Of a stretch of DNA of 64,000 nt, positions 33,063-62,441 are shown piece by piece (position 1 is the stretch's first letter; each line of letters begins with the position of its first letter). The notes beneath the pieces were generated by a model, which was not told the DNA's origin, did no database searches, and was given only the letters and a program-made list of their open reading frames with translations. Origin of the DNA: Acholeplasmataceae bacterium (GTDB lineage: Bacteria; Bacillota_I; Bacilli_A; ML615J-28; CAG-698); assembly GCA_012838705.1 (NCBI GenBank), contig DUOT01000015.1:18367-82366 (forward strand), read 5' to 3'. The position numbers and the translations under genes are program-made.

Positions 33063-33073
33063 AAAGCAAGTTA

Positions 33074-34741
33074 TTAAGAATAAGCACTAGTTAGATTTTC
33101 TTGTAAGTATTGTCTGTGAGTTGCAACAACTTCTTGATATGTTTCAATATCACCTTGAACATATTGACGCATTGCAACTGGGAAGTCACCTGACCACATG
33201 TTAGTGATAGCATTTGTAGGTAGTGACATTGGATCGAAGAATCCTGTTACTTTAAATCTATCAGACATATATAGTAACGCTTCAACACTTTCATCAGATT
33301 CTGTGTATCTTTGTGCGAATGCTAATCTTTGCGCTTCTTCATCTTCACTTGGCATTTGTTCTAAGAATTCCTTAGTCTTATGGAATGTAGTAACGAATGC
33401 TAAGTATACATTTTCAGATGTACATTCAGGACCATAAGCTGAGTAATCGCGACCAATTGGCATTGCATATGTTGCTGTACCACCGGCAGCTACACCTTGT
33501 TGTTCTTTAGAAATGTCATCTGGACGTGGCCATGGAACATAACCATATTTAGTTTCTTCAGGAGTTCCCCATAAATCTTCTGGCCAACGAGTTGCATTGT
33601 TAACAAACCATAAGTCGCCAGCTGCAAATAATGCTCTTTGGTCGTTCCAAGCTGTCATATATTGCTCAACCATGAAGTTAGGATCGAATGCACCATCATC
33701 AAAAACTTCTCTTAAGATTTCTGCAGCTTCAACAGCATATGGATGATCAATATTAAGTTTTAATGTTGCAGGTTCTGCAGCAGCTACTCCACCAGCATTT
33801 AGCATACCAATCCAATAATATGCAGGGTTACCAGTTAGAGCATATTCACTGTCGCCTAAACGTCCTTGTACGTCTAGAACATATTTTTTGAATTCAGAAT
33901 ACGTCCAATTGCCTTCGTTGAAAATTTGAGCAGGTTCTTTAATACCTAATTTTTCAACCATACCAATGTTATAATACAATACGTTATAAATACCAGCAGT
34001 TCCTTCAGTCATTGAATATAAGCCACCTTTATAGCTTCCTGATTGAAGATATACTGGGTCCATATAATCATTACCATAAGCAGCATACCAGTTACTTACG
34101 TCGATTAATACGTTACCTTCAACTAGCATTCCGATGCGGTCATCAGGAATAACGATAATATCATAATCTGATACGTTACGAGCTGCTTGTGCAATTAGGT
34201 AATCCCATCTTGGTGGTCCCCATGCATATTCTTGAGGATAAGCAACTACTTTAATTTCACAGTTAAAGTTTTCTTTTACAAAGTTCCATGCTTGTTGTTT
34301 AGCTTCCTTATTTGTTTGATTATAATCTTCATGGAAAGGATCTATTTCATAAATAGCTGTATCAGATTGAGCAATTACAATCTCAAGTCCACCTAAATCA
34401 GGATAGTCAACTGCTTCAGCTTGAACTGTAATACTAATTCGTCCTTCAACTTCTTCATCAGCAGTTGAAGTAGCATAAATTAGTGTTGTACCAGCAGAAA
34501 CTGCAGTTACTAAACCATTTTCATCAACAGATGCAATACTATCAATAGCAGAACGCCATGTAACGCTTTGATCAACCTTTGCAGGTTTAACAGTTGCTGT
34601 TAATTGAACAGTTTCCCCAACTGCTAGAGTTGTTTTATTGCCTGCAGCAGTAATTTCTACAGATTCTGGCCCTTTGCTTTGACAACCAACTAAAACAACT
34701 GCAAAAGCAAACATTAGCAAAAATGCTAATAATTTCTTCAT
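33074..34741 (-). CDS. lipoprotein: N-terminal Big_2 domain + extracellular solute-binding protein (sugar ABC transporter SBP)
   Basis: It has a signal peptide and lipobox (VLVGC|QS) and a Big_2-like segment (…TLAVGETVQLTATVKPAKVDQSVTWRSAIDSIASVDENGLVTAV…). A roughly 400-aa SBP-like body follows. It is monocistronic, with its own promoter region and terminator. Confidence 0.6.
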   Translation of the reverse strand: MKKLLAFLLMFAFAVVLVGCQSKGPESVEITAAGNKTTLAVGETVQLTATVKPAKVDQSVTWRSAIDSIASVDENGLVTAVSAGTTLIYATSTADEEVEGRISITVQAEAVDYPDLGGLEIVIAQSDTAIYEIDPFHEDYNQTNKEAKQQAWNFVKENFNCEIKVVAYPQEYAWGPPRWDYLIAQAARNVSDYDIIVIPDDRIGMLVEGNVLIDVSNWYAAYGNDYMDPVYLQSGSYKGGLYSMTEGTAGIYNVLYYNIGMVEKLGIKEPAQIFNEGNWTYSEFKKYVLDVQGRLGDSEYALTGNPAYYWIGMLNAGGVAAAEPATLKLNIDHPYAVEAAEILREVFDDGAFDPNFMVEQYMTAWNDQRALFAAGDLWFVNNATRWPEDLWGTPEETKYGYVPWPRPDDISKEQQGVAAGGTATYAMPIGRDYSAYGPECTSENVYLAFVTTFHKTKEFLEQMPSEDEEAQRLAFAQRYTESDESVEALLYMSDRFKVTGFFDPMSLPTNAITNMWSGDFPVAMRQYVQGDIETYQEVVATHRQYLQENLTSAYS

Positions 34742-34828
34742 TTTTTCTTTCCTCCTCGAAAAATTTTTTGTTAGTTTGTTTATATCACTTTAGAGTAATG
34801 ACTCATAAAGCCCCTAAATAAACATGTT

Positions 34829-34842: not shown

Positions 34843-34946
34843 CTACAATTATACACTATATTTTTCTATTTTGCAAGACTTTTTCTACTGATTTTTTGTC
34901 TTTGGCACAAAATAAATGCCTTGATTTTTCAATCAATTAATTTTAA

Positions 34947-35669: not shown

Positions 35670-35673
35670 TTTC

Positions 35674-37213: not shown

Positions 37214-38254
37214 TTACATACCTGTTAGTCCCGTTCTTTCAATACTTTCTACAAATGCTTTTTGCACCCAGAAATATGCTATTAATAATGGTAACATCAT
37301 TAATAAAGCTGATGTATTAGCAAGTAAAGCATGGAACATTGGGTCTTCACCAATATCGTCACCATATTCCACAAATATCTCAGGGAATGATGTTCGGAGA
37401 GTTGCCGAAACATTTCCTTTGATTGTTGAAATTTTATAAGATAATAAGGAATGATGTGATTGATATCTAAATAAATTTGCCCAATAATAATCATTATATT
37501 GCCATACGAAAGCAAATAACGATACAGTAACTATTGCACCACGTGCATTTGGTAGCATAACACTCCAAAATGTACGAATAACGCCGGCACCATCAATTTC
37601 CGCAGATTCTTCTAATTCTACTGGAATATTCCTAAAGAATTGTCTAAATAAGAATATAAAGATAGCAGATCTTAATCCCATACCAAATGCAGACATAATG
37701 TAGATTGCAAAAGTATGAGCTAGTAATTGAATACCAAAGAATTTATTATAGTTAAAGAATAAGAATCTAGCTAAGTTCAATGTTTCATTAGGAACAACTA
37801 GTGTGAAAATAATTAAGAAGAATATAATATTATTTCCACGGAAACGAAGACGTGCAAATGCATAACCAGCAACAGCAGTAGCAAATACTTGCACAACCAT
37901 CGATACTCCAGCTAATACTACTGAATTCTTTAATGATTCAAAGTAATTCAAGTAGTTCATTGCAATTGTAATATTATCAGTACTGAAAATATCTGGAATC
38001 CAAATTACTTGTGGATTTGTAATGTCGAATGGTGAACGGAATGCAAATGATATTTTTTGAATTATTGGTAATAAAATAACAAATGCAAGACCAATTAGAA
38101 TAAATGTTCTAAAGAATATAGTAACAACTCTACCGATTTTACGGTTACGAACTCTTTTCTTAACTGGATCTTTCCAATCTTCTTTAAATTGAGCCCATCT
38201 TTGCTTTAATTGAGCAAGGAACGGTTCCTTTTGTCTTACTTCTTTATTCGTCAT
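37214..38254 (-). CDS. carbohydrate ABC transporter permease (MalG/CUT1 type)
   Basis: It has six predicted TM helices and the EAA-like loop …ELEESAEIDGAGVIRTFWSVMLP…. Confidence 0.8.
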   Translation of the reverse strand: MTNKEVRQKEPFLAQLKQRWAQFKEDWKDPVKKRVRNRKIGRVVTIFFRTFILIGLAFVILLPIIQKISFAFRSPFDITNPQVIWIPDIFSTDNITIAMNYLNYFESLKNSVVLAGVSMVVQVFATAVAGYAFARLRFRGNNIIFFLIIFTLVVPNETLNLARFLFFNYNKFFGIQLLAHTFAIYIMSAFGMGLRSAIFIFLFRQFFRNIPVELEESAEIDGAGVIRTFWSVMLPNARGAIVTVSLFAFVWQYNDYYWANLFRYQSHHSLLSYKISTIKGNVSATLRTSFPEIFVEYGDDIGEDPMFHALLANTSALLMMLPLLIAYFWVQKAFVESIERTGLTGM

Positions 38255-39296
38255 AGTAGAACACCATCCTTGAGAGTATTAATAAGGTTAGACCCAATAT
38301 TGCTAAGCTTACCAAAGCAAATATCCATGACATCGCAGCATTTATTCCATATCCACTCAATTCCCCAAATCGTGCACTAGAGAATTTATCAGGAGTATAG
38401 AATGTATTAATAATTGAAATTAATGGAGATGTCAAGAACGAGTCAACAACTGTATATACAGCAGCAGTTAACATCATTGGCGACACCATTGGGAAGGTTA
38501 TCTTCCAGAACATTTCGTACTTTGTCGCACCTTCAATTTCTGCAGCTTCGTATAAATGTTTCGGTACAGATTGTAACGCAGCTAAGAAAATTAATATTTG
38601 AACACCAGAATAAGTAACAATTTCATAGATTTTTGCGGAAGCATTTCCTAAGAATCCAACAAGACCAACTGGAATATTTGCGTTGAGTAAGAAAGTTTCA
38701 AAGTTAAACATGCTTTCAAATAAATCCGCAGTACTATTTTGAATTACTAAGTCTAGTGCCTCACCTTCACTACCTAATGCAATATCAATTGCTTGTGAGT
38801 TAAAGATAACAGGCATGAAGAAGATTGCTCTTGCTAAAGCACGACCTTTAAATTTAGTATTTAATACAACTGCAATAATTAAGCTAAAGATAAGGATAAC
38901 TGGAATATCAGTAGCGATATCTATTATCGCAGTTACTAAGTGTTCCGTAAATGAACCATTAATATCAGCTGCTTCAGTAAAAGCATAAATATAATTTGAT
39001 AAGCCAATATAGGTAGATATAATACCACCTTCCGTAGGCTTGTTCTCTACAAATGATAAACTATAAATAATTGAATATCCGAAGGGGATTAAGAAGAAGT
39101 AAACAAAACCGATTAATAGAGGGATTAAAAATACAAATCCCCAGATGACTTTTCGTTTACGATATGGAATATGATCAGCTAAAAATTTTGGTATAAATGT
39201 TAGTCCGTCTTTAATTGCTCTCATTACTTTTGAGTCCATTATTTTGTAATATAGTTTTCTAATTTTTGATAGAATATTTCCAAAAAATTTAGTCAT
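38244..39296 (-). CDS. carbohydrate ABC transporter permease (MalF/CUT1 type)
   Basis: The EAA loop is …LYEAAEIEGATKYEMFWKITFP…, and the protein is polytopic. Confidence 0.8.
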   Translation of the reverse strand: MTKFFGNILSKIRKLYYKIMDSKVMRAIKDGLTFIPKFLADHIPYRKRKVIWGFVFLIPLLIGFVYFFLIPFGYSIIYSLSFVENKPTEGGIISTYIGLSNYIYAFTEAADINGSFTEHLVTAIIDIATDIPVILIFSLIIAVVLNTKFKGRALARAIFFMPVIFNSQAIDIALGSEGEALDLVIQNSTADLFESMFNFETFLLNANIPVGLVGFLGNASAKIYEIVTYSGVQILIFLAALQSVPKHLYEAAEIEGATKYEMFWKITFPMVSPMMLTAAVYTVVDSFLTSPLISIINTFYTPDKFSSARFGELSGYGINAAMSWIFALVSLAILGLTLLILSRMVFYYDE

Positions 39297-39297: not shown

Positions 39298-42200
39298 TTA
39301 CTCCCCTCCTTCCTTTATATAACTATATTGTTCAATAACTTTTCCATTATAGTTATAAGATTTATTTGAACTATTTACAACTAAGACAAGATTTTCTTCA
39401 CCTGGAATTTGGTAAGTAACTTTTGATACGTTCGCATCAATATATTCATGATCTATTAATCTTCCTCGATGAATACCAATCTCATTTATACGGTTATTTA
39501 AGTTAACAATTGTATCTTTCCAGTTTTTATAATATGCTTTATAGTACATTGTATAATCTGTATCAAGTAATACATTTGGATCTTGATATGATAACTGGAA
39601 TTGAATATTTGATCCTGTTTCTAATGCCTTAGCAAAATACCAATCTGCACTCTTATCACTAACACCGTTAATATAATCAGTTGTATAGTCTACTAATCCA
39701 CTTACAACTAATTGATAGAATGGAATAGTATAATCAATAATTCCAAATTGAGTTGTATCTAATGGAACATCTACAATCAAATCAGCATATTGTAGTGCAT
39801 AATCAAATGGAGCTGATAGTTTCAATTTACCAATTTCATTTGCTGCAATTTGTAACGCTTGTAGTTGATATTCAGTTCCAGTGTGAGCATAAATTTCATT
39901 TTTCTTACGATAACTTCCTAATCGAATATTACCTAAATCAGGAATATACGCTCCTCCTACTTCTAATTTCTTGTAAGATGGTAACATATTTTCCAATAAT
40001 GATTTGTAATAATTAGGTGATAAGTAATATGTTGGAGTCATCTTCTTATCTGGCATTAAAGTTGCTAGATCAAACGGATAATGACGTGCATATGCATTTC
40101 CAACACCACGAGCTGTATATTTATTATTTCCAAATGGATATTTATACCCCTTAGTAGAACCAACATTAACTACAGGATAAAAATCGATATTTTGTGATTC
40201 TAAATATTCATTTAATTCTTTTAGACCTTGTGCTTTACCTAGTACTGGTGAGACCTTGAATTTTCTTGATGCTTTAGGTTCCATTTCATCCTTTGTCCAG
40301 CTATGATAACTTACACTAATCGTATTAACTCCACTTGTCAATAACTCCTTAACAACTTCTTCAGCTTCTTTAAATGTTGTTAAGCTATCATCTTTCATAT
40401 ATTTAATTCCTAAGAACATATCATATCTTTCAAACGCTCCAAGGAAATCAAGATTAACTAGGTTTTCCGTAGTGTTATCTTTTTCAACTAAACCATATTT
40501 AGTCATTAGATACTCACGGTATCTATTAGCTAATCCAACATAATTTAGTTCATCATCTTCAAGGAAAATATATTTATATACTAAATCATTTTTATATATT
40601 TTCTTTGTCCATTTTGGGAATGAAGAAACGTTCCAACCTGCTCCCGCTTCAACATCTTCTTTTTGTCTTACGCGAGAATTAAAATAAATTACGTTTCTTT
40701 CTAACCCTGTTCGAGCAGTGTCAGCATAAATAGAAGATTGAGCAGCACCTTTTTCTAGAATAGCTAGGACACCTTTATTTTGAGTATTATCGATATAACC
40801 GAACATATTAAACATAATCGGCATCATCGCAGGTGATGCATTCTTCTCTACAAATGCTTTTTCCTTTCCATATATATCTTTATTATATGCACTATAATTT
40901 AGTAAATCTTTTTTATTATTAAATTTGATTACAGCACCACTACCATCCGGAATAACCATCATTCCTTCTGCTTCGGTGTCTGTTGTTTTCGTTAATTCCG
41001 GAAGAACATCAATTGAAGTTAATTGGAAATTATGTTGATAATTTGGGTCATTTTTTCCTTCTTCATAGTCTTTTAATGTTTCTCCCATAATCGTTGCTTC
41101 AAGACCATCATCAGTTAATTTAAATTGAATTCCAACTTGGAATCTTTCAAGTGTAGTTGATGATTCAACACCGAAAATTAAATTATCTTTCGCAACTTGC
41201 TCTAATGAGTATAATTGTTGAATTGGTTTGTCATCTTCATCATATAAGAAATTACCATTTTCATCAACTGCATGGAATCCACCACGCATAACCGGATTTC
41301 CTTCTTCATCAAAAATTGGATATTTTGTTGTAATGTCAATTTGTTGATGGTTTGTATAAAGCATGCGATATAAGCTTTCTTGTTCTTGCGAACTTCTTAG
41401 CCCTCTTAACCAATATCTAAAATCATGATTTTGGTCTGGTGTCATAATTCGATAATAAGATTGCATTTGAGTCCAATATTGGTTAGAAAAGAATGGATTA
41501 ACATATACAGGTGAGTTATGACTATTTAAATGAGTACCATAACTTGTATATAAATCTGGATCTAATATAGTTAGTTCCCAAAAGTTTCCACCTGGTGATT
41601 TTTGTACTATCGCTAGTCCATTTTCTTCTAAATATTGAGCTGCAGCAGGTGAATATGTATATCCTTTTCCTGAATATTTTAAAGTCGCTGTTTTTGTTGC
41701 ACTATCTCTTATAATGTCATAACTAAATGTTGTATTACCACGTAATCTTCCATCTAGTGTTAATAGATTTGCTTTGAATGCGGCTCTATCACCATTAAAG
41801 TCTTCCATAGTTTCATCTTCAAAGACTGCAGCTTTAAATTTTTCTGGGAAATAGTCTCTATTAGCACTAAATCTACCAATTTCATATAATACTTGAACAG
41901 CATCTTCTAAATATCTTACTTTATAATGTCGTTCATTAATACCTGTTAATGTATTTTCAAAGTTAATACTATTATCGAAAACATTCATTTTTCCAGCAGG
42001 TCTACCAGTTGAAACGATATGATATGTAATAATTAAATTGGAAGCTTCATGACCAGTAGCACCTTTTTTAGCTGTTGTGAAAATGACCTCTCCAGCCTCA
42101 ATATTATTTGGCTGTGTTGGATCTAACTCCACAATCGAAACAATAGTACTTTCTTCATCAAAAATCATTGCATATTTTGCATTCTTAGCAACAACTTTAT

Positions 42201-42411
42201 TATTATCAAACTCAAAATCTACGTTGATTCTATTTCCTTCTTCGTCATATTGAACTGTATGGAAATTGATAAATTGACTTTCATCAAATTCTAGATTATT
42301 TGTTTCAAGGTAGGAAACTTTTAATCCTCCAATGAAATACAATCCTAATAATACTCCCACAAAAACGACAATCAATGAGGGAATGATAAATTTTAATCTC
42401 AGAAATTTCAT
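39298..42411 (-). CDS. large (1037 aa) N-terminally membrane-anchored extracellular protein of unknown function
   Basis: It has a single N-terminal TM segment (IIPSLIVVFVGVLLGLYFIGG), then about 1000 aa of soluble domain with no motif I can assign. It is translationally coupled to the downstream permease pair. Confidence 0.4.
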   Translation of the reverse strand: MKFLRLKFIIPSLIVVFVGVLLGLYFIGGLKVSYLETNNLEFDESQFINFHTVQYDEEGNRINVDFEFDNNKVVAKNAKYAMIFDEESTIVSIVELDPTQPNNIEAGEVIFTTAKKGATGHEASNLIITYHIVSTGRPAGKMNVFDNSINFENTLTGINERHYKVRYLEDAVQVLYEIGRFSANRDYFPEKFKAAVFEDETMEDFNGDRAAFKANLLTLDGRLRGNTTFSYDIIRDSATKTATLKYSGKGYTYSPAAAQYLEENGLAIVQKSPGGNFWELTILDPDLYTSYGTHLNSHNSPVYVNPFFSNQYWTQMQSYYRIMTPDQNHDFRYWLRGLRSSQEQESLYRMLYTNHQQIDITTKYPIFDEEGNPVMRGGFHAVDENGNFLYDEDDKPIQQLYSLEQVAKDNLIFGVESSTTLERFQVGIQFKLTDDGLEATIMGETLKDYEEGKNDPNYQHNFQLTSIDVLPELTKTTDTEAEGMMVIPDGSGAVIKFNNKKDLLNYSAYNKDIYGKEKAFVEKNASPAMMPIMFNMFGYIDNTQNKGVLAILEKGAAQSSIYADTARTGLERNVIYFNSRVRQKEDVEAGAGWNVSSFPKWTKKIYKNDLVYKYIFLEDDELNYVGLANRYREYLMTKYGLVEKDNTTENLVNLDFLGAFERYDMFLGIKYMKDDSLTTFKEAEEVVKELLTSGVNTISVSYHSWTKDEMEPKASRKFKVSPVLGKAQGLKELNEYLESQNIDFYPVVNVGSTKGYKYPFGNNKYTARGVGNAYARHYPFDLATLMPDKKMTPTYYLSPNYYKSLLENMLPSYKKLEVGGAYIPDLGNIRLGSYRKKNEIYAHTGTEYQLQALQIAANEIGKLKLSAPFDYALQYADLIVDVPLDTTQFGIIDYTIPFYQLVVSGLVDYTTDYINGVSDKSADWYFAKALETGSNIQFQLSYQDPNVLLDTDYTMYYKAYYKNWKDTIVNLNNRINEIGIHRGRLIDHEYIDANVSKVTYQIPGEENLVLVVNSSNKSYNYNGKVIEQYSYIKEGGE

Positions 42412-42423: not shown

Positions 42424-43131
42424 TTAAAATAAATCCCTTAGACTAATTTCTTGATATATTGTGTAGAAGAAACCATACATTTTTTGAAATAAGTCATAGA
42501 ATAGAATTAACATAAATATAATAATCGCTGCAGCAAGTACTGTTGCAATTAAGGTGATAACACATTTTGCTAATCCGTATTCATGTATCGAAATCATTCC
42601 CATGAAAATTAAATAACCCATGAGGAACGCTCCAATCGACATAACAAGATAGTAAAATGCAAGTTCTTCACCTGTTAAGAAATTACTTAGTATAATTCCT
42701 AAACCTGTTGCCCATAACATCGGATAAAGAGAATAACCAATCATTAAAAAGATTTCTTTCATTTTCCCTTTACCATCAAATAAGGTAGTAACAGACCAGT
42801 TTGCTACTGTAAATAGTACAATCGGTGCAATAATATAAAATATTTCTGCTATACTATTTAAATCTTTTAATTCATTATCATTTACTTCAAATCCAGAAAA
42901 CTGGAAACTTAATATATTTAATAGAATTAATATAATAATAAATGTAACTGCAACTGATACTTTTGCACGCTTTTCTCGTTTAAATTCTTCATATGCTTTT
43001 AGGGGATGAGATAGCATATATGCAGGAAATTTAATAAACTCCTCAACAAAATATATATATTTTGGTTTTAGTTTTTCTACAAAGTTTTTAATTTTATTTC
43101 CAAAACTTGTTTTTGTCTTTTGTGATGTCAT
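42424..43131 (-). CDS. Yip1-like polytopic membrane protein
   Basis: It is 235 aa. A cytoplasmic N-terminal segment of about 55 aa is followed by five predicted TM helices, the Yip1/DUF1282-type topology. Confidence 0.45.
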   Translation of the reverse strand: MTSQKTKTSFGNKIKNFVEKLKPKYIYFVEEFIKFPAYMLSHPLKAYEEFKREKRAKVSVAVTFIIILILLNILSFQFSGFEVNDNELKDLNSIAEIFYIIAPIVLFTVANWSVTTLFDGKGKMKEIFLMIGYSLYPMLWATGLGIILSNFLTGEELAFYYLVMSIGAFLMGYLIFMGMISIHEYGLAKCVITLIATVLAAAIIIFMLILFYDLFQKMYGFFYTIYQEISLRDLF

Positions 43132-45143
43132 TATTCATCCCCCATTCCTGTTTCTTCTTCCTTTGGTAAATGACGGTACTTCACCTTCTTATAAATAGAT
43201 AAACCTCCAAAGACAACAATTAATGTAATTGCAACTGGTGTAAAATATTTTCTAATTGCAACATTTCGGTGAAGTTTATAAGCACGAGAATATAGTTCAC
43301 GGTCATAACCAAACTTGAAATATTCCATTGCTTTTTTATAGTCTTTATTATTAAAGTACATTCTACCAATACCAATGTAACCATATTCATAGTTGGCATT
43401 TTGTTTTACAACTTCTTGCCAATATAAAGCAGCTTCATTTAAGTTACCTTGATATTCTAATTCAACAGCACGATTGATTAATTTACCAATATCAGACAGT
43501 TCATATAATACAATACTTTTTGTAGAATTATCTAAAACTGCAACATTTTCATGTACATATGCAAGTGATACTGGATTACTTAATACTGTTAATTGTGTAT
43601 TTCCAATATTTCCATCTGAATATCGTGAATTTCCAGACACATATAATAGGTTACCTTCATTATCATAAGTAAATAGTCGACCCATTTTACCGTCTACGAC
43701 AGTATATACTCCATATTCATTTACAGTAATTCCTGCAAATTTTGAAGGACCATTATATAATGCTAGAACTTGACCAATATGATATTTAACATCTCCCTTT
43801 GGCGGTTGATATCCATTACGACGTAAAATATCTTTACCTGTCGGATTAATTCTTTTAATCATATTGTTATCATCAGTAACTATATTTCGATCGTTAGTAA
43901 GGGCTTGAGATGTCGCATAAATAAACCCTTCCTTATCAACTGCCATACTTGTAAATGAAGTATTAATAATTGATTGTTGTTTTTTCAATTGTTCTTCAGT
44001 TGAGAAGTTTCTCCAGAATACTTCCCAAGGAGTAAGTGTTACATAGTTAACACCTGTGAAACGGTTAAATTCACCTTCACGACTGAATTGCATTATACCT
44101 TCATTTACGTTACTTGCGATAACATATATTCTTCCTGCTCGGTCAGTAACGATATCTATTGGTGTAATGTCACGACCTTCAAAAGTATATTCATCTTTAG
44201 GTGTTCTTACAATACGAACTACTTCATAAGTCTCACTATCGATAACGATAACTTGATTATTATTTCGGTCTGCAAGATATATAAGATCTTCACGTGTTGT
44301 AGGTGTTACAGCACGATATACTCCGTATAAACCATTTGCATGTAATTGAATTGATTCTTTACTACGTAAATCGGCAAGAGTAAATCCATAATGTTGTTCT
44401 TCGATTACTGGTGGTTCTGGTTCGTTTGTTACAGTAACTTGAATTTTAACTGTAACAATTGGAGCTACTTCTTTTTCTTCATCATCTTCTTCGTTTTGCT
44501 CAATTGCTTCATATAATCCACCATTAATTGTTACTCTTCCTAATCCCTTAGCAACAATAAATGGTTTTCCATCACGAATCTCAATATCGGCAATACTATC
44601 ATTTGTTGATGACCATTTAATTTCATAATCAAAATCAATGTCACCAAGTTGATATGTTATTTCTTGTTCACTTAAATCTTCAAATTCTTCATTATCATAA
44701 ACTAGATTAATGAATTCCATTTCATGTGGTATTGAAAACAATACATCACGCGCAATTAAATATTGTCCACCACTTTTATATTCTTTTAACTGATCATCAG
44801 TAAATTTGCTTGGTTTTAATGTAAATGATGATACTGTTTTTAATAACTTAAAATTATCATCAAAAACAAATAATTTATTTGAATTTGCGTCAACAACATA
44901 AATTGTTTTATTTCCTTCACTATCAGTAAAAGTAAATATATCTCTCGGGTTTGTAAAATCATCAAAGGCAATTCCTAAATCTTGTGCAGTATACGGTTTT
45001 TGATTAATTGTAAATCCTACAGTTGAATAAATAGGATCACCACGATGATCATATGTATAACCAACAGCAGCCTTTATATTTATTGCCGTTAATGTAACCA
45101 TAAAGGTTACTATGGCAATTAAAAATTTTATTCCTTTTCTCAT
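43131..45143 (-). CDS. secreted NHL-repeat beta-propeller + TPR-like protein with C-terminal transmembrane anchor
   Basis: It has a signal peptide (FLIAIVTFMVTLTAINIKA). Repeated segments are DRNNNQVIVIDSETYEVVRIV, DRAGRIYVIASN and VDKEGFIYATSQ (NHL/YVTN-like blades). A TPR-like segment near the C-terminus is …EYQGNLNEAALYWQEVVKQNANYEYGYIGIGRMYFNNKDYKKAMEYF…. A final TM helix is VAITLIVVFGGLSIY. Confidence 0.5.
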   Translation of the reverse strand: MRKGIKFLIAIVTFMVTLTAINIKAAVGYTYDHRGDPIYSTVGFTINQKPYTAQDLGIAFDDFTNPRDIFTFTDSEGNKTIYVVDANSNKLFVFDDNFKLLKTVSSFTLKPSKFTDDQLKEYKSGGQYLIARDVLFSIPHEMEFINLVYDNEEFEDLSEQEITYQLGDIDFDYEIKWSSTNDSIADIEIRDGKPFIVAKGLGRVTINGGLYEAIEQNEEDDEEKEVAPIVTVKIQVTVTNEPEPPVIEEQHYGFTLADLRSKESIQLHANGLYGVYRAVTPTTREDLIYLADRNNNQVIVIDSETYEVVRIVRTPKDEYTFEGRDITPIDIVTDRAGRIYVIASNVNEGIMQFSREGEFNRFTGVNYVTLTPWEVFWRNFSTEEQLKKQQSIINTSFTSMAVDKEGFIYATSQALTNDRNIVTDDNNMIKRINPTGKDILRRNGYQPPKGDVKYHIGQVLALYNGPSKFAGITVNEYGVYTVVDGKMGRLFTYDNEGNLLYVSGNSRYSDGNIGNTQLTVLSNPVSLAYVHENVAVLDNSTKSIVLYELSDIGKLINRAVELEYQGNLNEAALYWQEVVKQNANYEYGYIGIGRMYFNNKDYKKAMEYFKFGYDRELYSRAYKLHRNVAIRKYFTPVAITLIVVFGGLSIYKKVKYRHLPKEEETGMGDE

Positions 45144-45152: not shown

Positions 45153-46148
45153 CTACTTCATTCCCGAATGAGCCATCGTGTCCATAATTTGTGTTTGAGA
45201 TAGTACGAAGACTGTCACCGGAACTAGTATCATGATAAAACTTACAGCCGCAAGAGTACCTTGACGAGCTGGACCCGCTGTTGCAATTTGGCTTAATGCA
45301 TAACCAACCATCTTTAAGTCTTCACTATAAATATATGTTGAACCCGATGTTAACCATAAGTATTGGAAACTTAAAATGATTAGCGTTAACCATGCCGGCT
45401 TTACAAGTGGCATTATGATCTTCCAATAGATTTTAAACTCACCAGCACCATCAATTTTTGCTGATTCAATTAAACTAGTTGGAATATTTGTCATAAATTG
45501 TTGCATTAAGAAAAGTCCTAAAGTAGAAGAGAAAGCTGGTAATATTAATACCCAATATGTATCAATTAAACCAATTTCATTAAAAATTAAATATAGTGGA
45601 ATAGCTGTAATAGCTGGGTTAAATAGTAATGAATATCTAATCAAACCAGATAAGAATTTTCCACCAGGAACATTTCTTTTAGCTAATGGATAAGCACACA
45701 TTGATGCAACAATAACATGTCCAACAGTTCCTAGAAGCGTTACGAATATTGTATTAAAGAAGTAACGTGATACTGGTACTAATGAACTTCCTAAAATATT
45801 TGCTAAGTCAGAAAAGTTTGTTAACGTAGGGTTACGAACAAAAATACGCGGTGGGAATAAGAATATTTCATCTAGTGGTTTGAAGGCATTATTAACTGTT
45901 AGAATTAGTGGTAATAAACTAAATGTACCACATACAGCTAGAAATACAAATAATGTAATATCCCCTTTTAAAGTTCTATTAACACGTTTCTTTCTTTTAG
46001 AACGCCTTTTTATTGTAAATGCATTTATTTCCGAAAAAGGACGTGAATCGATTCTTTTTGCTCTTATTACGTTTTTATCGTACTTTTTCTTTTCCTTTTT
46101 AGGCTTTTTAATTTTTTGCTTTTTAATTTCTTCAGTCATTCTAATCAC
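45153..46148 (-). CDS. carbohydrate ABC transporter permease (MalG type) with ~60-aa Lys/Arg-rich N-terminal extension
   Basis: The permease core has the EAA loop …LIESAKIDGAGEFKIYWKIIMP…. The N-terminus is MTEEIKKQKIKKPKKEKKKYDK…RRSKRKKRVNR. Confidence 0.75.
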   Translation of the reverse strand: MIRMTEEIKKQKIKKPKKEKKKYDKNVIRAKRIDSRPFSEINAFTIKRRSKRKKRVNRTLKGDITLFVFLAVCGTFSLLPLILTVNNAFKPLDEIFLFPPRIFVRNPTLTNFSDLANILGSSLVPVSRYFFNTIFVTLLGTVGHVIVASMCAYPLAKRNVPGGKFLSGLIRYSLLFNPAITAIPLYLIFNEIGLIDTYWVLILPAFSSTLGLFLMQQFMTNIPTSLIESAKIDGAGEFKIYWKIIMPLVKPAWLTLIILSFQYLWLTSGSTYIYSEDLKMVGYALSQIATAGPARQGTLAAVSFIMILVPVTVFVLSQTQIMDTMAHSGMK

Positions 46149-47136
46149 CCACCCTACTAATAATTTTTCTTATAAGTTTATTTAGCAGAATCGCTGCAAT
46201 AAATAGGATTGTTGCAATTGCTGATGCATAACCCATTTCAAATCGTGTTAAACCATAGTCTGTTAAGTGGTTAACGATTGTATGACCTGCATAGTCAACA
46301 GTAGGGAAGCCAGCCAATAATACTGTAATACTACCGATACCTAATGTATTTGAAATTTGAATTACGGCACTAAATACAAGTTGTGGTTTCATTTCTGGTA
46401 ATGTAATGTACCATAATTCTTGCCAACGATTCTTAACACCGTCGATTGCTGCTGCTTCATAAAGTGTTTTATTAACACTTTTAAGTCCGGCAAGTAGTGA
46501 TAAGAAGTTCACCCCTAAGCTCATCCATAATTGAACAATAATTATGATTGGTAAAATATATTTTGTATTTTGGAGCCAGGTTATCGGTTCATTTATGAAT
46601 CCCCAATCCAAGAGGAACGCATTCGCATATCCATAAATATCACTTGAGAAAATGATTGTCCAAATGAGAATACCATTTCCCGCTAGTGATGGTGCATAGA
46701 ATGCAAGAGTTACAATAGGACGAATTTTTGGTGGTAATTCATTAATTAACCAAGCGAAAACGAATGCAAGTATATATCCAATTGGACCAGTAATTACAGA
46801 TAAAATAAGTGTATTTTTTAAAGCAGTAATAAAGATGTCATCATTAAGAAATAAACTAAGATAATTACTAAACCCAACAAAACGGGGCGCTTCGAGGACA
46901 TTGAAGTAAGTAAAGCTTAGTAATAAACTCATGACAACAGGTACTACTGTAAATAATGTAAATAGAAGTAAGAATGGAAACATCATTAAGTAAAGAGATC
47001 TATTTAAATAGAGTTTTCTTCTTAATGGTTTCTTTCTACTCCATTGATCAATTTTTTGGCTAGTTCTTTCTTTCCACTTTTTAAATTTATCCCATTGGCG
47101 TGCAAACCAATTTTTATTTGTTATAGTACTTTGCAT
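46141..47136 (-). CDS. carbohydrate ABC transporter permease (MalF type)
   Basis: The EAA loop is …LYEAAAIDGVKNRWQELWYITLP…. It overlaps the next permease by 8 nt. Confidence 0.8.
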   Translation of the reverse strand: MQSTITNKNWFARQWDKFKKWKERTSQKIDQWSRKKPLRRKLYLNRSLYLMMFPFLLLFTLFTVVPVVMSLLLSFTYFNVLEAPRFVGFSNYLSLFLNDDIFITALKNTLILSVITGPIGYILAFVFAWLINELPPKIRPIVTLAFYAPSLAGNGILIWTIIFSSDIYGYANAFLLDWGFINEPITWLQNTKYILPIIIIVQLWMSLGVNFLSLLAGLKSVNKTLYEAAAIDGVKNRWQELWYITLPEMKPQLVFSAVIQISNTLGIGSITVLLAGFPTVDYAGHTIVNHLTDYGLTRFEMGYASAIATILFIAAILLNKLIRKIISRVGD

Positions 47137-47145: not shown

Positions 47146-50100
47146 CTACTCCCCAGTTGGCACTGGTAGCCCAAACTCTTCGCGTTTTCTAGTAATTTCA
47201 TGATTAATCATAACGATATATTCTTCAAATGTTTGGCGTGGATTAATGTTATTATTAACAACTTTACGGAACGCATTTTCAAGGTTACGTCCTGTATAAT
47301 AACCACCTGGAACTTCAGGTACTCCAACAGTCCAAGGGAATTGGGCATTTAATATTTCTAATTCTTCAACTGTCCAAGGTAAACGTGAGAATGCTTCAAT
47401 GTTTGGAGTTGCATGACGTGCAGCAGTACCGATAATTGATTCAAGTTCACGGTTATATGCTGTTTGTGTATCAGCATCTGTCCACCACTTCATAAATTCC
47501 CATGCAGCTTCCGGAACATTTGTAGTTTTAAGCATGATAACTGCTGTTCCACTTGTTGCAGTTGAACGGTCAATAGTTCCATCTTCTTGACGAGTACCAG
47601 GCATATTTGCAAATGTCCATTTACCTCTAATTTCTGGAGCTGATACCATTAAAGTATTGTAAACATTGTAATCACTAATACCAATTGGCATCTCACCAGT
47701 ACGGAAACGGTTGATAAATGTAGCCCATGTAATCGTTAATTCGAAACTATAATTTGTATAGAATTCTGTCCAGAATTCAAATGCTTGCATTGATTCTTCT
47801 GAGTCAAAATTGGAGATTACATATTCTTCACCACGGTCATTTAATTCTGTACGATAGAATGAACCTCCAGTTTGGAATAATCGCGATGCGAAAATACCAT
47901 TTACAACACTTGCAGCACCTAGTGTATTTAGTGGCAAGTAGAATTTCATGTTATGAATTTGTAATTCTGGTATTAAGTCAATTACTTCTTCCCATGTATC
48001 AGGAACTTCCCAACCATAATCTTCAAAAATATCAGTACGATAAAAGATAACAGGGAAAAGTTGTGTATTTGGTAATGCATAATACCCTTCATGTCCTGTA
48101 CGATCCTTATATGAATACGGTACGATAGCACTAGGGTAGAAGCGTTCAATTACTTCTTCAAAATCATCAAATTTTGTTAAGTCCATAACTGCTCCACGAA
48201 GAGCATAGTTTACAGGAATACCATTAGCAACGTTTATTGCAACGTCAGGACCACGACCAGCTAGAGTCGCATTTAATAATACTTCCGGTGCAACAACTTT
48301 CAATTCAACATTAACATCACTTTCAAAAGTAGAGTCGATTAATGTACGAATTGAGTTTCCTTGTTCACGACCAACTGATGGGTCAGTTAAGAACCATACT
48401 TCTACAGTTTCATCGTCACCTTTTTCTACTGTTGCTCCAATAGCTGAATAATCAAAGAAGAATGATTTAAAGAAGCTTTTCATATTAAACCATGTTCCAA
48501 CAAAGAAATTAGGATTTGCTTTTGGTAATTTATAATCATCACTATGAACTAGTAAATAGTCTACCGTTAATGCTTGTTCACTTACAGTAAGAACCCAAGT
48601 TCCAAGTGAAGAAATATTTGTACTAAATGAACGCATATTACGTTGAATCTTACGTGGTTGTTTGATAAAGTCGCGTAATTGTAAAGCCATTGTTTCTAGA
48701 CTCGCCGACTCACCACTCTTTTCACCACTTATTCTTGTAATTGTTTTCGCTACATCTTCAATTTCTACTATACAATGTTCAAATGTTGGAATTAATTCAG
48801 GAATATTATCTGTTAATCGATAATCGATATATTTATCAGGGTTAACCCCAATCTTAGCAATTATCGCACGATACATTCTATTTAATTCATCAATTACTTG
48901 TTGGATACGATTGATTTGTGAACCATAATCACCTAATGTAACTTCAAGAGTGATAGTATGTGTACCTTCTTCTAAGTAGAAATAGAATGGTTCATCTTCA
49001 GTACCTAATGTTACAATGTTCCAATCACTTGCATAAGTAAATTTTGCATTTTGTGCTTCCGCAAATGGAATTTTATCATCAATATATACTTTACGTGTTG
49101 AGAATAAACCACGGTTAGAACTTTGACGAGCACGTAAAGAGATATTATAAAGTCCACTTTCCGGAACAGTAAATTCCCAAGTAATCCAGTCACCTGGAGT
49201 TGACCATTTTGCTCCACCGATTGAGTTTAATATAACCTTTACAGGATCTGCAGGTGAGTTGTAAGCACTTGAACGGTCATGAATTGCATAGATTGTAGAA
49301 GAGGAACGATAAACAGAATCTTCACCTTGGATTTTTGGATCTCCTTCAACGTAATATCCTGTTATTCCCCCAGTAACTTTTTTATATCCTTTAGCTTCAT
49401 ATTCAGCTTTTACTTCTTCATATGATTTATATTCTTCTTTACTTGTCACATGAATATTAAAGATACTCATTGTTTCACGAACAGATTCAAATGTAATAGT
49501 GTTTTTACCTTTTGATAAATATACTAAATAAGGCTCTGTTACATAACCGATTTTATCTTTAACATATTGCTCACGGCGAATTCTGTGTTCTGCTTGAACT
49601 GGTCTAATTTCATTTCCATTTAAGTCAATAATTTTATCGCCGCCATCAGTCCATACTCTTTGGAAAGTAATATTATTTAAGTCGTCATATGGAACTTCTC
49701 CATTAACAAGGATCTTTCTTTCAATATCAACACCATTATCTTCTTCAGGAAGGTAATCAACTTTGATATTGTAGAAACCTGCCTCTTCAATATTTACTTC
49801 CCAGGTAGCTGAGCCACTTGAAGTAGTTTTCAAAGCTTTTTCACCATATTTGTTAGTATAATCAACTACTACAAAATCAGTCTCAATTGCGTCTTCACCC
49901 GGAATTACAATATCAACATTTTTCGGATAGTTTTGAGGATATTTATCTAAATATTCTTTATAATCACCGAGTACTAATACTGACTCAGGAATTGTTGCAT
50001 TTGAATATTTATGGCCATCATCAAAACTTTTTACGACAACACTAATAAATAAAAATACTAATAATACTAAAAGAGTCCATAAAATTGTCTTTTTTATAAT

Positions 50101-50175
50101 TCCTTCTCTAGTTAAGAATTTAGTAATTGCGTTTTTCACCTTTTTAAAATTATTAGTTTTTATTCTTTCTTCCAT
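47146..50175 (-). CDS. 1009-aa membrane-anchored fusion: N-terminal TM + two tandem carbohydrate-binding-like repeats + C-terminal extracellular solute-binding (SBP family 1-like) domain
   Basis: The TM anchor is ILWTLLVLLVFLFISVVV. Two homologous repeats are …SGSATWEVNIEEAGFYNIKVDY… and …PGDWITWEFTVPESGLYNISLRARQ…. The C-terminal roughly 450 aa has SBP_bac_1-like features (…VEVWFLTDPSVGREQGNSIRTLIDSTFESDVNVELKVV…RGPDVAIN…). It immediately precedes a permease pair. Confidence 0.5.
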   Translation of the reverse strand: MEERIKTNNFKKVKNAITKFLTREGIIKKTILWTLLVLLVFLFISVVVKSFDDGHKYSNATIPESVLVLGDYKEYLDKYPQNYPKNVDIVIPGEDAIETDFVVVDYTNKYGEKALKTTSSGSATWEVNIEEAGFYNIKVDYLPEEDNGVDIERKILVNGEVPYDDLNNITFQRVWTDGGDKIIDLNGNEIRPVQAEHRIRREQYVKDKIGYVTEPYLVYLSKGKNTITFESVRETMSIFNIHVTSKEEYKSYEEVKAEYEAKGYKKVTGGITGYYVEGDPKIQGEDSVYRSSSTIYAIHDRSSAYNSPADPVKVILNSIGGAKWSTPGDWITWEFTVPESGLYNISLRARQSSNRGLFSTRKVYIDDKIPFAEAQNAKFTYASDWNIVTLGTEDEPFYFYLEEGTHTITLEVTLGDYGSQINRIQQVIDELNRMYRAIIAKIGVNPDKYIDYRLTDNIPELIPTFEHCIVEIEDVAKTITRISGEKSGESASLETMALQLRDFIKQPRKIQRNMRSFSTNISSLGTWVLTVSEQALTVDYLLVHSDDYKLPKANPNFFVGTWFNMKSFFKSFFFDYSAIGATVEKGDDETVEVWFLTDPSVGREQGNSIRTLIDSTFESDVNVELKVVAPEVLLNATLAGRGPDVAINVANGIPVNYALRGAVMDLTKFDDFEEVIERFYPSAIVPYSYKDRTGHEGYYALPNTQLFPVIFYRTDIFEDYGWEVPDTWEEVIDLIPELQIHNMKFYLPLNTLGAASVVNGIFASRLFQTGGSFYRTELNDRGEEYVISNFDSEESMQAFEFWTEFYTNYSFELTITWATFINRFRTGEMPIGISDYNVYNTLMVSAPEIRGKWTFANMPGTRQEDGTIDRSTATSGTAVIMLKTTNVPEAAWEFMKWWTDADTQTAYNRELESIIGTAARHATPNIEAFSRLPWTVEELEILNAQFPWTVGVPEVPGGYYTGRNLENAFRKVVNNNINPRQTFEEYIVMINHEITRKREEFGLPVPTGE

Positions 50176-52009
50176 ACATTCCTCCTAGTAACTTTTGCGC
50201 AACCTCAATAAATATATGAATGTACTCACAACTCTTATCAAGTCCACCACTCTTATTTCTTTGTTGCCACAAATATTTTAAGCCATTTATCAAATCATTT
50301 TTACTTGCAACTACTTCTTCAAGTAATTTTATTCTATAAGACTCATCTACTTCTTCATTTAATGAAAGATTAACCTTGTACAATGTTTTAATGAAATTAA
50401 CAGCATATGTAATTTCTTCTTTAATTAATTCATCTACTTTTGCAAGTTTTAATTGGCGAAGTGAAAAGTCAAAGAAATCATTAATTATTGTATATTTCTC
50501 AAAAGATAAAATCTTATCATGTAATTTATCTTTTAAGTATTCCAGATCTTCATTTTCTTTAATCATGTTATGAGCCCACATAAATACTTGGAACGCTTGT
50601 GTCATATTACTTGTATAATAGTTTTCAAAACGATAATAATTAGCTAAGTCAAGTATTAAGTCACCCATAATTTTTGTATCATCTTTAAATATATGATCAT
50701 TTAAATAATGTTTTAGTAAATAATAAGTTCCTGTTTCACAACGATAACTTAAAAGGCCTGCATAAACTAGTGAAGCATAAATTGTTGGTAGTGATTGTAG
50801 GTGTCCAAAATCACCCCAGTTTGTTAGTAATATTCCTTCACCACCATATAGTTTTGTAAAGAAACATGAACTAGTAATTGTTGATAAAGCATCATAAGTT
50901 CTTCCTAGGAAACTACACCAACTTGAAGTTCCCGGTGCAGCCATAAATTTAATTCCAGTTTCTTTTAATTTCAATAAATGCTTTTCAAATGGATAATTAG
51001 CATCATATCCCCAATCAACAAAAATAACATCTTTAGGAATACGATCTAATACATCATCATGACGAATAAGAACGTCACCCCAAATTAAAGGGGTTTTATT
51101 ATATTTTCTAATTTCTTCAATAGCTTTTAATGCATAATCTAAATAAACGTTACCCAAACCTTCTTTTTCTACCGCTTCTTTAGATTTACCTTTACCTAAC
51201 TCAAATGGTTCATCAAAGTTCATGTTGAAGTATTTTGAATTAGAAAGTGGAAGCATATCTGCATACATCTTTTTAATTAATTCAAATGATCTTTCATCAC
51301 GTGGATCTAAAGTTGATGGAGCACGATGACGTCCCCATAAAAAGATTCCATCAGGTGCTTCTGCTAGATCTTTAAATTCATCAAGTTCAAGCCATTGTGC
51401 CATATGTCCGAAACCATTTTGGTTAGGAACAAAATCAATATATTTAGAATTCGCATATCTTTCAATTTCTTGATATTCTTCAACAGTTATATATGAGTTT
51501 TCTGTTAAGTACTTTTTGAACGATTTATATTCAAAAGAAAACCCTTCCACATACAACTCAAAATGATTCATCTTTAAATCGCTCATGATATCAAGAATAT
51601 GCTTAACTGTTTCTAGTTTTGGAACTTTATTACGACTAATGTCAAACATAAAGCCACGAACCTTTAAATCTGGTTCGTCATAAATATATAAGCATTGCAT
51701 TTCTTGACGTATAAGTTGTTTAAGGGTTTTCACAGCATAATAAAAGCCGACTTCTGTACTGGCATATGCAGTAATATTTGAATCGGAAACTTTTAATTCA
51801 TATGCTTGCTCAGGCAAGTCCTTAAATAAAAAAATGATATTACTTTCGTTTCGATCACCAATTTTACAATCAGTAAATGATTTCAATTCGTTAAAAACGT
51901 TTTCCATTTCTTGCTCAAAAAAAACAATTTTCTCATCCAAAACAAGCTTTCCTTCTTGCATTATAACTTGTTTTGGTCTAGGATAAATCATATTCATTTT
52001 TAACCCCAC
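50153..52009 (-). CDS. GH20-like beta-N-acetylhexosaminidase
   Basis: RGFMFDISRNKVP…HFELYVEG… resembles the GH20 catalytic-domain motif RG(L/F)M(L/F)D(V/I)SR…H. A candidate catalytic D-E pair is present (…NMNFDEPFELG…). It is the first gene of the long operon. Confidence 0.55.
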   Translation of the reverse strand: MGLKMNMIYPRPKQVIMQEGKLVLDEKIVFFEQEMENVFNELKSFTDCKIGDRNESNIIFLFKDLPEQAYELKVSDSNITAYASTEVGFYYAVKTLKQLIRQEMQCLYIYDEPDLKVRGFMFDISRNKVPKLETVKHILDIMSDLKMNHFELYVEGFSFEYKSFKKYLTENSYITVEEYQEIERYANSKYIDFVPNQNGFGHMAQWLELDEFKDLAEAPDGIFLWGRHRAPSTLDPRDERSFELIKKMYADMLPLSNSKYFNMNFDEPFELGKGKSKEAVEKEGLGNVYLDYALKAIEEIRKYNKTPLIWGDVLIRHDDVLDRIPKDVIFVDWGYDANYPFEKHLLKLKETGIKFMAAPGTSSWCSFLGRTYDALSTITSSCFFTKLYGGEGILLTNWGDFGHLQSLPTIYASLVYAGLLSYRCETGTYYLLKHYLNDHIFKDDTKIMGDLILDLANYYRFENYYTSNMTQAFQVFMWAHNMIKENEDLEYLKDKLHDKILSFEKYTIINDFFDFSLRQLKLAKVDELIKEEITYAVNFIKTLYKVNLSLNEEVDESYRIKLLEEVVASKNDLINGLKYLWQQRNKSGGLDKSCEYIHIFIEVAQKLLGGMYGRKNKN

Positions 52010-52024
52010 TTTTCATACTTCTTT

Positions 52025-52060
52025 ATAGAGAATAAGAAATATAAGTATATTTTCTCTATG
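52025..52060 (-). promoter_or_regulatory. imperfect palindrome (candidate operator) between the -10 element and the GH20 start codon
   Basis: TATAGAGAAtaAGAAATATA-ag-TATATTTtCTCTATg has nested inverted repeats TAGAGAA/TTCTCTA and AAATATA/TATATTT. It directly abuts a TTGATA-17-TATAAT promoter, whose -10 is at 52064-52069 on the minus strand. Confidence 0.3.
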
Positions 52061-52169
52061 CTTATTATACATTAAAACATAGTTTTTATCAAGGATAAAT
52101 TTCACTTTTATGTCTAGGTAATATTTAGCATGCAACAATATATATAACAAATAGGAAATAATCAATGGG

Positions 52170-52208
52170 AAAAGTCTTGGTTTTACCCAAGACCTTTCTT
52201 TTTTACTA
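52170..52208. terminator. hairpin with flanking A/T runs; likely terminator for the small membrane-protein gene, also terminator-like on the plus strand
   Basis: The stem is GTCTTGG-TTTTAC-CCAAGAC (52174-52193). CTTTCTTTTTT follows on the plus strand and TTTTCC on the minus strand. Confidence 0.5.
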
Positions 52209-52215
52209 TGATTAA

Positions 52216-52410
52216 TCAGCATCTTCTATCATGATCAACAATGGAAAGAATTCCACCGATAAGTCCAATTAGTATCATAAGAATTAAAATTACTGCAAAG
52301 AAGATTACAGCGAAATTACCAAGTGCGAAAATAAATAGAAGTACTAAAAGAATAGCAAGACCAATTGTTCCAGCAATTAATAATGCAGAAAAGAATATTA
52401 CTTTTTTCAT
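52216..52410 (-). CDS. small hydrophobic membrane protein (~64 aa, two TM helices)
   Basis: The RBS AGGAGGGGAG lies 4 nt before the ATG at 52408-52410. The product is MKKVIFFSALLIAGTIGLAILLVLLFIFALGNFAVIFFAVILILMILIGLIGGILSIVDHDRRC. The ORF-track start at 52431 reads through the RBS. Confidence 0.45.
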   Translation of the reverse strand: MKKVIFFSALLIAGTIGLAILLVLLFIFALGNFAVIFFAVILILMILIGLIGGILSIVDHDRRC

Positions 52411-52609
52411 ACACTCCCCTCCTTTCCACATTTTTGTGGAACTATAGCTTGAAAGTATAAAGTTCGGGGAATTAGTATAGTTGTTTTTTTATTCTATAGT
52501 CCCACTTTTAATTTTTTCATTCCTTCTTGGGCCTATAGAAAAACCACTATCATCGTTATTAATATATGAAAAACGTAACTCTCTGCAATGGCGATTATCT
52601 AAAAGTGGA

Positions 52610-56409: not shown

Positions 56410-56418
56410 ATTATCCTC

Positions 56419-62415: not shown

Positions 62416-62441
62416 TTACTACCTCTCTTATTAATTTTTTT

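Follow-up and report, generated by a model that had tools for sequence, protein, structure and literature searches.

Can the solute-binding protein (SBP) of an ATP-binding cassette (ABC) importer hold a polymeric glycan at the transporter mouth by means of carbohydrate-binding module (CBM)-like domains of its own? This question is raised by a 64,000-nucleotide stretch of contig DUOT01000015.1 from an Acholeplasmataceae bacterium (hereafter the window), in which a gene at 47146..50175 encodes a protein of 1009 residues, beginning with ATG in the list of open reading frames (ORFs) and their translations. This gene and all features described below are on the minus strand, and coordinates are positions in the window unless another locus is named. 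A reading of the letters alone (hereafter the sequence-only reading) had proposed for this product an N-terminal transmembrane anchor, two CBM-like repeats and a C-terminal SBP domain. Our analysis supports the view that the product, here called the giant SBP, is a family-1 SBP that is anchored in the membrane and carries two homologous modules with a CBM6/CBM35 fold. We consider it rather likely that a CUT1-type (MalEFG-like) importer of oligosaccharides uses the protein as its substrate receptor, with the CBM-like module serving in a cassette for glycan capture and import.

Domain architecture of the giant SBP

The homology of the two internal segments, first noticed in the sequence-only reading, was borne out by three comparisons. 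BLASTP of residues 51–290 against residues 291–560 gave E = 5e-9 with 26% identity over 107 columns. The Smith-Waterman score was 97, compared with 30.4 ± 5.2 in 2000 shuffles (z = 12.8), none of which scored as high, and HHalign of repeat profiles from 36 family members gave a probability of 99.4% and E = 1.1e-21 over 88 columns. The tryptophan motif that the sequence-only reading had seen in both segments is homologous, but it had been paired three residues out of register; the gapless match is TWEVNIEEAGFYNI with TWEFTVPESGLYNI. The segments had been estimated at about 100 residues each. Repeat 2 has ~113 residues (residues ~300–413; 48937..49278) and is assigned to a CBM6/35-like beta-sandwich by its homology to repeat 1 and by profile matches. 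Repeat 1 (residues ~88–244; 49444..49914), for which the same fold is predicted with pLDDT values mostly of 85–97 and by Foldseek, is longer (~157 residues) because of a conserved insertion of ~23–27 residues (residues ~174–200; 49578-49655) that is absent from repeat 2. The family consensus of the insertion is W-G-D-G-G-E...D..G-N-D-I-K-P.Q.E.P, with D184, N188, P192, Q194, and E196 invariant across the 36-sequence alignment; from its composition, it looks like a metal- or ligand-binding loop. A conserved linker (residues 245–299) lies between the repeats. The two beta-sandwiches are the product of an ancient internal duplication.

Two AlphaFold2 models were built, both from family alignments: one of the full length (mean predicted local distance difference test score (pLDDT) 85.9; predicted template modelling score (pTM) 0.78) and one of the N-terminal module (residues 51–585; pLDDT 89.9 and pTM 0.87). 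Foldseek searches with the full-length model gave SBP matches only, and the CBM matches came from the separate model of residues 51–585. This model matched the CBM35 structure 2w1w with E = 1.2e-6 and a target template modelling (TM) score of 0.77, as well as CBM6 2cdp, CBM35 2vzp, 7ehg, and 8j3x, and the multi-module enzymes 5x7o, cycloisomaltooligosaccharide glucanotransferases (CITases), and Xyn30D. By Foldseek, the predicted model therefore has the beta-sandwich (jelly-roll) fold of CBM35 and CBM6. The profile of repeat 2 matched 8zvk at E = 1e-6 and the CBM35 of a CITase (5x7g) at E = 3e-6, and its weaker matches are all CBM6/35. In these alignments, W324 and the G-D-W-I-T-W segment of repeat 2, both at least 95% conserved in a 249-member alignment, correspond to the Y/W...G-D-W pattern of CBM6/35; the alignments end before the C-terminal Asn. 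The conserved aromatic residues W324, W333, and Y343 are located in the segment that aligns with the CBM6/35 ligand-site region. Models and profiles support a CBM6/35-like fold and superfamily for the repeats, whereas membership of CBM35 is unsupported. From this likeness, we infer glycan binding by the repeats.

The repeats share the beta-sandwich with characterised CBM35 and CBM6 modules (2w1w/2w47 of Clostridium thermocellum, CITase 5x7g/3wnk, CsxA 2vzp, and agarase 2cdp; Foldseek E = 1e-6, target TM scores of 0.6–0.77), together with the common strand motif G-D-W-x-x-(W/Y)...G-x-Y. Unlike these modules, they score under the Pfam cut-offs, and repeat 1 has its conserved 27-residue insertion. 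In addition, CBM35 and CBM6 modules hang on a glycoside hydrolase (GH) by a flexible linker, whereas the repeats are predicted to be packed with a helical bundle in a non-enzymatic receptor. Foldseek also aligned the model of residues 51–585 with full-length Cry protoxins (9h9a, Cry8Ba2; 9h99, Cry1Ca18) over ~570–600 columns, with E = 1e-7 to 4e-6 and low TM scores. The protoxin halves of Cry proteins consist of CBM6-like beta-rolls alternating with helical bundles, and the resemblance may be merely a common domain grammar.

The sequence-only reading had placed the SBP domain directly after the repeats. The domain is present, but a helical bundle of ~120 residues and a connector, both missed in that reading, intervene. 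In both models, DSSP assigns the bundle (residues ~415–532; 48580..48933) four helices at residues 415–442, 461–483, 488–505, and 514–532, for which the Foldseek search gave no specific fold match. The connector (residues ~533–588; 48412..48579) consists of one beta-strand and one long helix in the AlphaFold2 models, and 16% of its columns are at least 90% conserved.

The remainder of the protein is a family-1 (CUT1, MalE-like) solute-binding domain (residues ~589–1001; 47173..48411) according to Pfam, PDB, and Foldseek searches, in agreement with the earlier assignment. SBP_bac_8 and SBP_bac_1 match residues ~606–922 with 75.3 and 72.9 bits (cut-offs of 27 and 26, respectively). The two-lobed MalE-like fold is evident from the superposition of the AlphaFold2 model on more than 1000 PDB chains of SBPs; the Foldseek matches include 5ci5 (E = 1.3e-20), 5ysf (target TM score of 0.79), 9xf5, CbpB, and MnBP, with E values of 1e-20 to 1e-16 and target TM scores of 0.65–0.79. 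These relatives bind sophoro-, cycloisomalto-, cello-, and manno-oligosaccharides. The nearest solved relative by sequence is the sophoro-oligosaccharide-binding Lin1841 (5ysb; E = 3e-11). Lin1841 of Listeria innocua (5ysb–5ysf), the beta-1,2-glucooligosaccharide-binding protein of a CUT1 importer, shares the MalE-like fold of the C-terminal 410 residues (Foldseek E = 1e-18 to 1e-20 and target TM scores of 0.72–0.79 for Lin1841 and its kin), and its genes and those of its kin (5ci5, CbpB 7x0i, and the cycloisomaltooligosaccharide-binding protein 9xf5) adjoin those of MalF/MalG-type permeases, as is the case here. However, these proteins are single-domain SBPs of ~390–440 residues, to which the giant SBP adds an N-terminal extension of ~540 residues and a transmembrane anchor. 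Because the identity to Lin1841-type SBPs is just 17–19%, their specificity cannot be transferred to the giant SBP.

Oligosaccharide SBPs of the Lin1841 type are lipoproteins. The giant SBP has no lipobox, and the only Cys of the protein is C468. As the sequence-only reading had recognised, it carries an N-terminal anchor instead. A cytoplasmic tail of 29 basic, lysine-rich residues (residues 1–29; 50089-50175) is followed by a signal-anchor helix (residues 30–49; 50029..50088), which was identified by hydropathy and by the AlphaFold2 helix spanning residues 2–48 of the full-length model. It is the sole strongly hydrophobic stretch of the protein, with a Kyte-Doolittle 19-mer maximum of 2.9 at residues 30–48. 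An N-terminal hydrophobic segment is present in 232 of 248 full-length family members, and a lipobox-like motif in only 10. We also considered a lineage-wide lack of lipoproteins as the reason for the anchor and rejected it; a neighbouring SBP of 555 residues has a normal lipobox (LVGC), and the transmembrane anchor is thus a property of the giant SBP and not of the lineage. Judging from the high pTM values, the ectodomain is predicted to form one rigid body of packed domains, and the linkers of the N-terminal module are conserved and not of low complexity. An AGGAGG Shine-Dalgarno sequence is located 5 nt before the ATG of the gene.

Relatives of the giant SBP are numerous. The whole-protein search retrieved 507 at E ≤ 1e-5, the best 120 of which have 965–1281 residues with 88–100% query cover. 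The N-terminal module alone (residues 51–560) retrieved 1959 clusters at 50% identity, 886 of them at E ≤ 1e-30, and in the top 150 matches the module is nearly always N-terminal in proteins of 930–1270 residues. Full-length relatives occur in at least 588 GTDB species genomes, and the carriers include Acholeplasma laidlawii, Izemoplasmatales, Lederbergia, Bacillus, Paenibacillus, Cohnella, Herbinix, and Epulonipiscioides, as well as Clostridia. A gene-fusion or assembly artefact was rejected on the basis of this spread. The architecture had been called unusual, which is true in comparison with characterised SBPs only and does not hold in sequence space, given these species genomes and 886 clusters. 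A full-length relative with adjoining permeases was also found on contig DATJKM010000064.1 (locus L060), which is labelled Candidatus Udaeobacter (Verrucomicrobiota); judging from its Paenibacillus-like identity, its presence there may reflect contamination in binning and not transfer.

Mean pairwise identity among 249 members is 0.47 for both repeat 2 and the SBP domain, 0.34 for repeat 1, and 0.37 for the bundle. Since repeat 2 is conserved like the SBP domain, the N-terminal module is evidently under purifying selection and is unlikely to be a mere spacer. Moreover, the family is present in the wall-less A. laidlawii (locus L008), which means that binding to the producer's own wall cannot be what the module is for. 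The relatives are named only "extracellular solute-binding protein" in the databases, and NCBIfam has no model specific to the giant SBP or to the partners described below. In a literature search, no published description of an SBP with CBM-like modules or of the cassette was found; a paper on the C. phytofermentans proteome mentions both search concepts in unrelated contexts. The components are of known kinds, namely a CUT1 SBP, a CBM6/35-like fold, and a GH129-like enzyme.

A conserved cassette of eight genes

The neighbouring proteins of the window were searched by tblastn against 80 related loci. The genes have a fixed order (giant SBP, permease, permease, NHL/TPR protein, Yip1 protein, DUF5696 protein, permease, and permease), and 73 of the 80 loci hold the complete cassette. 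Their range extends from Acholeplasma to Paenibacillus and Clostridia; the remaining loci run off their contigs. One Paenibacillus genome has two cassettes, the giant SBPs of which are 57% identical.

Directly downstream of the giant SBP gene are two permease genes with BPD_transp_1 domains, as in CUT1 importers. Permease 1 (UgpA/MalF-type; 46141..47136), which is located 9 nt past the SBP stop codon and resembles UgpA/GlcT in NCBIfam, is present in all 80 loci, and permease 2 (UgpE/MalG-type by NCBIfam; 45153..46148) in 77. A second pair at 37214..39296, comprising a UgpA-type protein of 350 residues and a UgpE-type protein of 346 residues, is found in 73 and 77 loci, respectively. The best NCBIfam models for the permeases are UgpA/UgpE and GlcT/GlcU, all of which score far under the cut-off. 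No LSGGQ signature of a cognate ATPase occurs anywhere in the 64-kb window. In Bacillota, several CUT1 systems are commonly served by one orphan ATPase (such as MsmX or MsmK), and the missing ATPase is therefore compatible with membership of CUT1.

Between the permease pairs are genes for three further proteins. The NHL/TPR protein (43131..45143; 74 of 80 loci) is an exported protein of 670 residues with a C-terminal transmembrane helix, weak Pfam matches to NHL, SBBP, and TPR, and a match to an NCBIfam beta-propeller repeat model. The Yip1-domain membrane protein (235 residues; 42424..43131; 74 of 80 loci) matches Pfam Yip1 with 48.7 bits (cut-off of 28.6). The two are fused in seven loci as ORFs of 681–790 residues (14597-16681 in L040, 7116-9176 in L076, and five others), which suggests that they act as one unit. 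The ABC transporter YknXYZ of Bacillus subtilis has an accessory subunit with a Yip1 domain, YknW. In both systems, a Yip1 membrane protein is genetically coupled to ABC components. However, YknWXYZ is an exporter with a membrane-fusion protein, whereas the cassette has importer-type permeases, an NHL/TPR propeller, and a GH129-like protein.

This last component is the DUF5696 protein (1037 residues; 39298..42411; 73 of 80 loci), which is N-terminally anchored and matches DUF5696 at E = 1.5e-137. A profile of 26 orthologues matched GH129 structures, namely the 3,6-anhydro-D-galactosidase 5opq (E = 1.7e-11) and the alpha-N-acetylgalactosaminidases 5wzq (E = 5e-6) and 5wzn (E = 1.2e-5); the aligned stretches lie outside the catalytic residues. 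The single sequence had no match in the PDB, and neither literature on DUF5696 nor an NCBIfam model for it was found. On the basis of the profile matches, the protein is a distant relative of GH129 and, by extension, probably a membrane-anchored surface glycosidase.

The SBP of 555 residues mentioned above (33074..34741), a conventional lipoprotein by its LVGC lipobox with an N-terminal Ig-like domain (Pfam Big_2), probably works with one of the permease pairs. Most of the other genomes have a gene for an SBP of 450–520 residues either immediately before the giant SBP gene or immediately behind permease 4. In A. laidlawii, the equivalent position directly upstream of the giant SBP is occupied by an SBP with an Ig domain. 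SBPs with extra domains seem to be common in the Acholeplasma-like clade.

The amino-sugar neighbourhood in the window

The cassette is located within one long string of minus-strand genes. The probable first gene of the operon encodes a GH20 beta-N-acetylhexosaminidase (50153..52009; Pfam GH20 and GH20b), and its 3' end overlaps the start of the giant SBP gene by 23 nt. The best promoter-like site, with 11 of 12 matches, is at 52092-52064. Of the 80 loci, only the 11 closest have GH20 upstream of the giant SBP. Other neighbours identified by Pfam are two GH3 proteins, NagB, NamZ, MupG, a BadF-type sugar kinase, AnmK, a MurQ-like SIS protein, an S33 hydrolase, and an FAD-linked oxidase with the alpha and beta subunits of an electron-transfer flavoprotein. 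The oxidase and the flavoprotein could consume D-lactate released by MurQ. A GHL10 protein is also encoded upstream of the giant SBP, which was checked only via its relatives at other loci, and the upstream region appears from the translations to encode LD-carboxypeptidase-like, GNAT, and beta-lactamase-fold proteins and a decarboxylase-dipeptidase fusion. Together, 21426-37173 and 50153-59642 look like a complete catabolic island for peptidoglycan and amino sugars around the cassette.

Further upstream, at 61414-63341, two adjoining ORFs of 333 and 299 residues look, from their translations, like paralogous GH18-type chitinases or chitinase-like proteins, which suits the amino-sugar theme of the region. 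The GC content of the DNA is 30.5%, and the gene products are closest to those of Acholeplasma-like Bacilli. A search for literature on Acholeplasma with MurQ found none.

Proposed role of the giant SBP and competing explanations

In the mechanism that we propose, an uncleaved N-terminal signal-anchor helix would hold a single rigid ectodomain on the membrane, consisting in order of two CBM6/CBM35-fold beta-sandwiches, the helical bundle, the connector, and the MalE-like binding domain. The MalE-like domain would capture an oligosaccharide and pass it to permeases 1 and 2, and the ATPase would be a shared one encoded elsewhere. The CBM-like module would most likely keep longer glycan chains, or the products of the DUF5696 protein, near the binding cleft, and the cassette would be a cell-surface unit for the capture, trimming, and import of glycans. 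Because the cassette is inside a peptidoglycan/amino-sugar operon, the likely cargo in the source genome would be glycan fragments containing N-acetylglucosamine or N-acetylmuramic acid. The chito-oligosaccharides and muropeptides that the sequence-only reading had suggested as substrates likewise fit the neighbouring amino-sugar genes. Its idea of polymer tethering at the transporter mouth is conjectural, with service as a scaffold or in docking as a serious alternative. Beyond the gene order, we infer complex formation among the cassette proteins and the identity of the substrate.

Several observations weigh against this receptor function with a glycan-binding module. The CBM-like nature of the repeats holds for the fold and for the profile of repeat 2, but not at the level of Pfam, where neither repeat reaches a CBM cut-off; the scores of repeat 1 are 16.2 bits for CBM_35 (cut-off of 28) and 24.3 bits for Golvesin_C (cut-off of 31.6). 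When repeat 2 of 16 members was scanned as single sequences, all matches were sub-threshold, the best E values being 3e-4 for CBM_6 (6 of 16) and 1.4e-3 for CBM_35 (2 of 16). The profile of repeat 1 gave only marginal PDB matches (GH29 C-terminal domain, E = 0.035; CBM35 2w1w, E = 0.05), and on inspection of the motifs neither repeat has an obvious counterpart of the C-terminal N-x-D that is canonical for site A of CBM6/35. In the models, the module looks rigid and integrated, unlike CBMs that hang on flexible linkers, and a scaffold role would fit this equally well. With regard to the substrate, GH129-type enzymes are alpha-glycosidases, whereas peptidoglycan and chitin are beta-linked, and the target of the cassette enzyme may therefore differ from what its neighbours hint at. 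Furthermore, 98 ORFs in the upstream flanks contain GHL10 in 9 cases and GH20 in 8, and otherwise regulators, with no CAZyme family common to the clades. Because the flanks outside the Acholeplasma-like clade, Paenibacillus included, hold mostly regulators, the amino-sugar link is clade-specific and cannot be generalised.

One alternative is that the N-terminal module binds no glycan and is instead a protein-protein platform or stalk, docking an otherwise normal receptor to the NHL/TPR-Yip1 unit, to the DUF5696 protein, or over the permeases. The sub-threshold CBM scores are what such a platform would lead one to expect, as are the prediction of the module as one rigid body (pTM of 0.87) and the conserved linkers, which are not of low complexity. 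The partners are strictly co-inherited, the fusion of NHL/TPR and Yip1 in seven loci can be taken as a sign of physical interaction of cassette proteins, and YknW with YknXYZ offers a precedent for a Yip1 protein. On the other hand, the relatives of the module by fold and by profile are all sugar-binding modules, and W324, W333, and Y343 are kept in the ligand-site region of repeat 2; the docking interface, moreover, is hypothetical. We regard docking as a doubtful but serious candidate.

Two other explanations have much less in their favour. In several Paenibacillus loci, triplets of a histidine kinase, an AraC-type response regulator, and an SBP are located upstream of the cassette, and the giant SBP might accordingly be a sensor that reports extracellular glycan to such regulators. 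These triplets, however, have their own SBP of 574 residues, and Acholeplasma-like loci, including the window, lack an adjoining two-component system. The tail of the giant SBP has only 29 residues without a signalling domain, and a permease gene directly follows its gene in 80 of 80 loci, so that we consider a sensory role highly improbable. We hold just as little with a non-carbohydrate ligand, such as glycerol-3-phosphate or another small solute, in combination with beta-sandwiches that would bind a non-glycan surface. Family-1 SBPs do bind glycerol-3-phosphate and other small solutes, the automatic annotation of some relatives can be read in this direction, and the permeases score best with UgpA/UgpE and GlcT/GlcU, if far under the cut-off. 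In contrast, the nearest relatives by structure and by sequence all bind oligosaccharides, the cassette includes a GH129-like protein, and its neighbours are glycosidases and enzymes of amino-sugar catabolism. An oligosaccharide receptor with a CBM-like module is the explanation that we prefer.

This receptor recalls the polysaccharide utilization loci of Bacteroidota, where SusD, surface glycan-binding proteins of the SusE/F type, and SusC embody a similar concept: non-catalytic, CBM-like surface modules hold the polymer by the transporter and a surface glycosidase, and a single conserved locus encodes them all. The likeness is one of functional analogy. There is no homology between the systems, the envelope is a different one, and an ABC importer stands in place of the TonB-dependent transporter; moreover, the giant SBP unites the binding modules and the transporter's receptor in one polypeptide. 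More tentatively, the cassette might be a previously undescribed but widely conserved surface machine of Bacillota, wall-less Acholeplasmatales among them, with the giant SBP as its receptor subunit. It would physically couple the CBM-bearing SBP, the membrane-anchored, GH129-like DUF5696 protein, an NHL/TPR-Yip1 assembly factor, and two ABC importers. Such a machine, a possible Gram-positive counterpart of the Bacteroidota utilisome, would in the lineage of the window harvest peptidoglycan or other amino-sugar glycans from neighbouring or dead cells.

Characterised binding proteins of Gram-positive ABC importers are single-domain proteins of ~400 residues, whereas this large family fuses the receptor to duplicated CBM-like modules. 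The architecture points to an unstudied coupling of polymer capture, trimming, and import at a Gram-positive or wall-less surface, and it provides first hypotheses for DUF5696 and bacterial Yip1 proteins. Its interest would be greater should the cassette proteins turn out to be coupled physically in one machine on the cell surface. If the organism of the window is wall-less, it would feed on the peptidoglycan of other bacteria, a possible case of necromass recycling.

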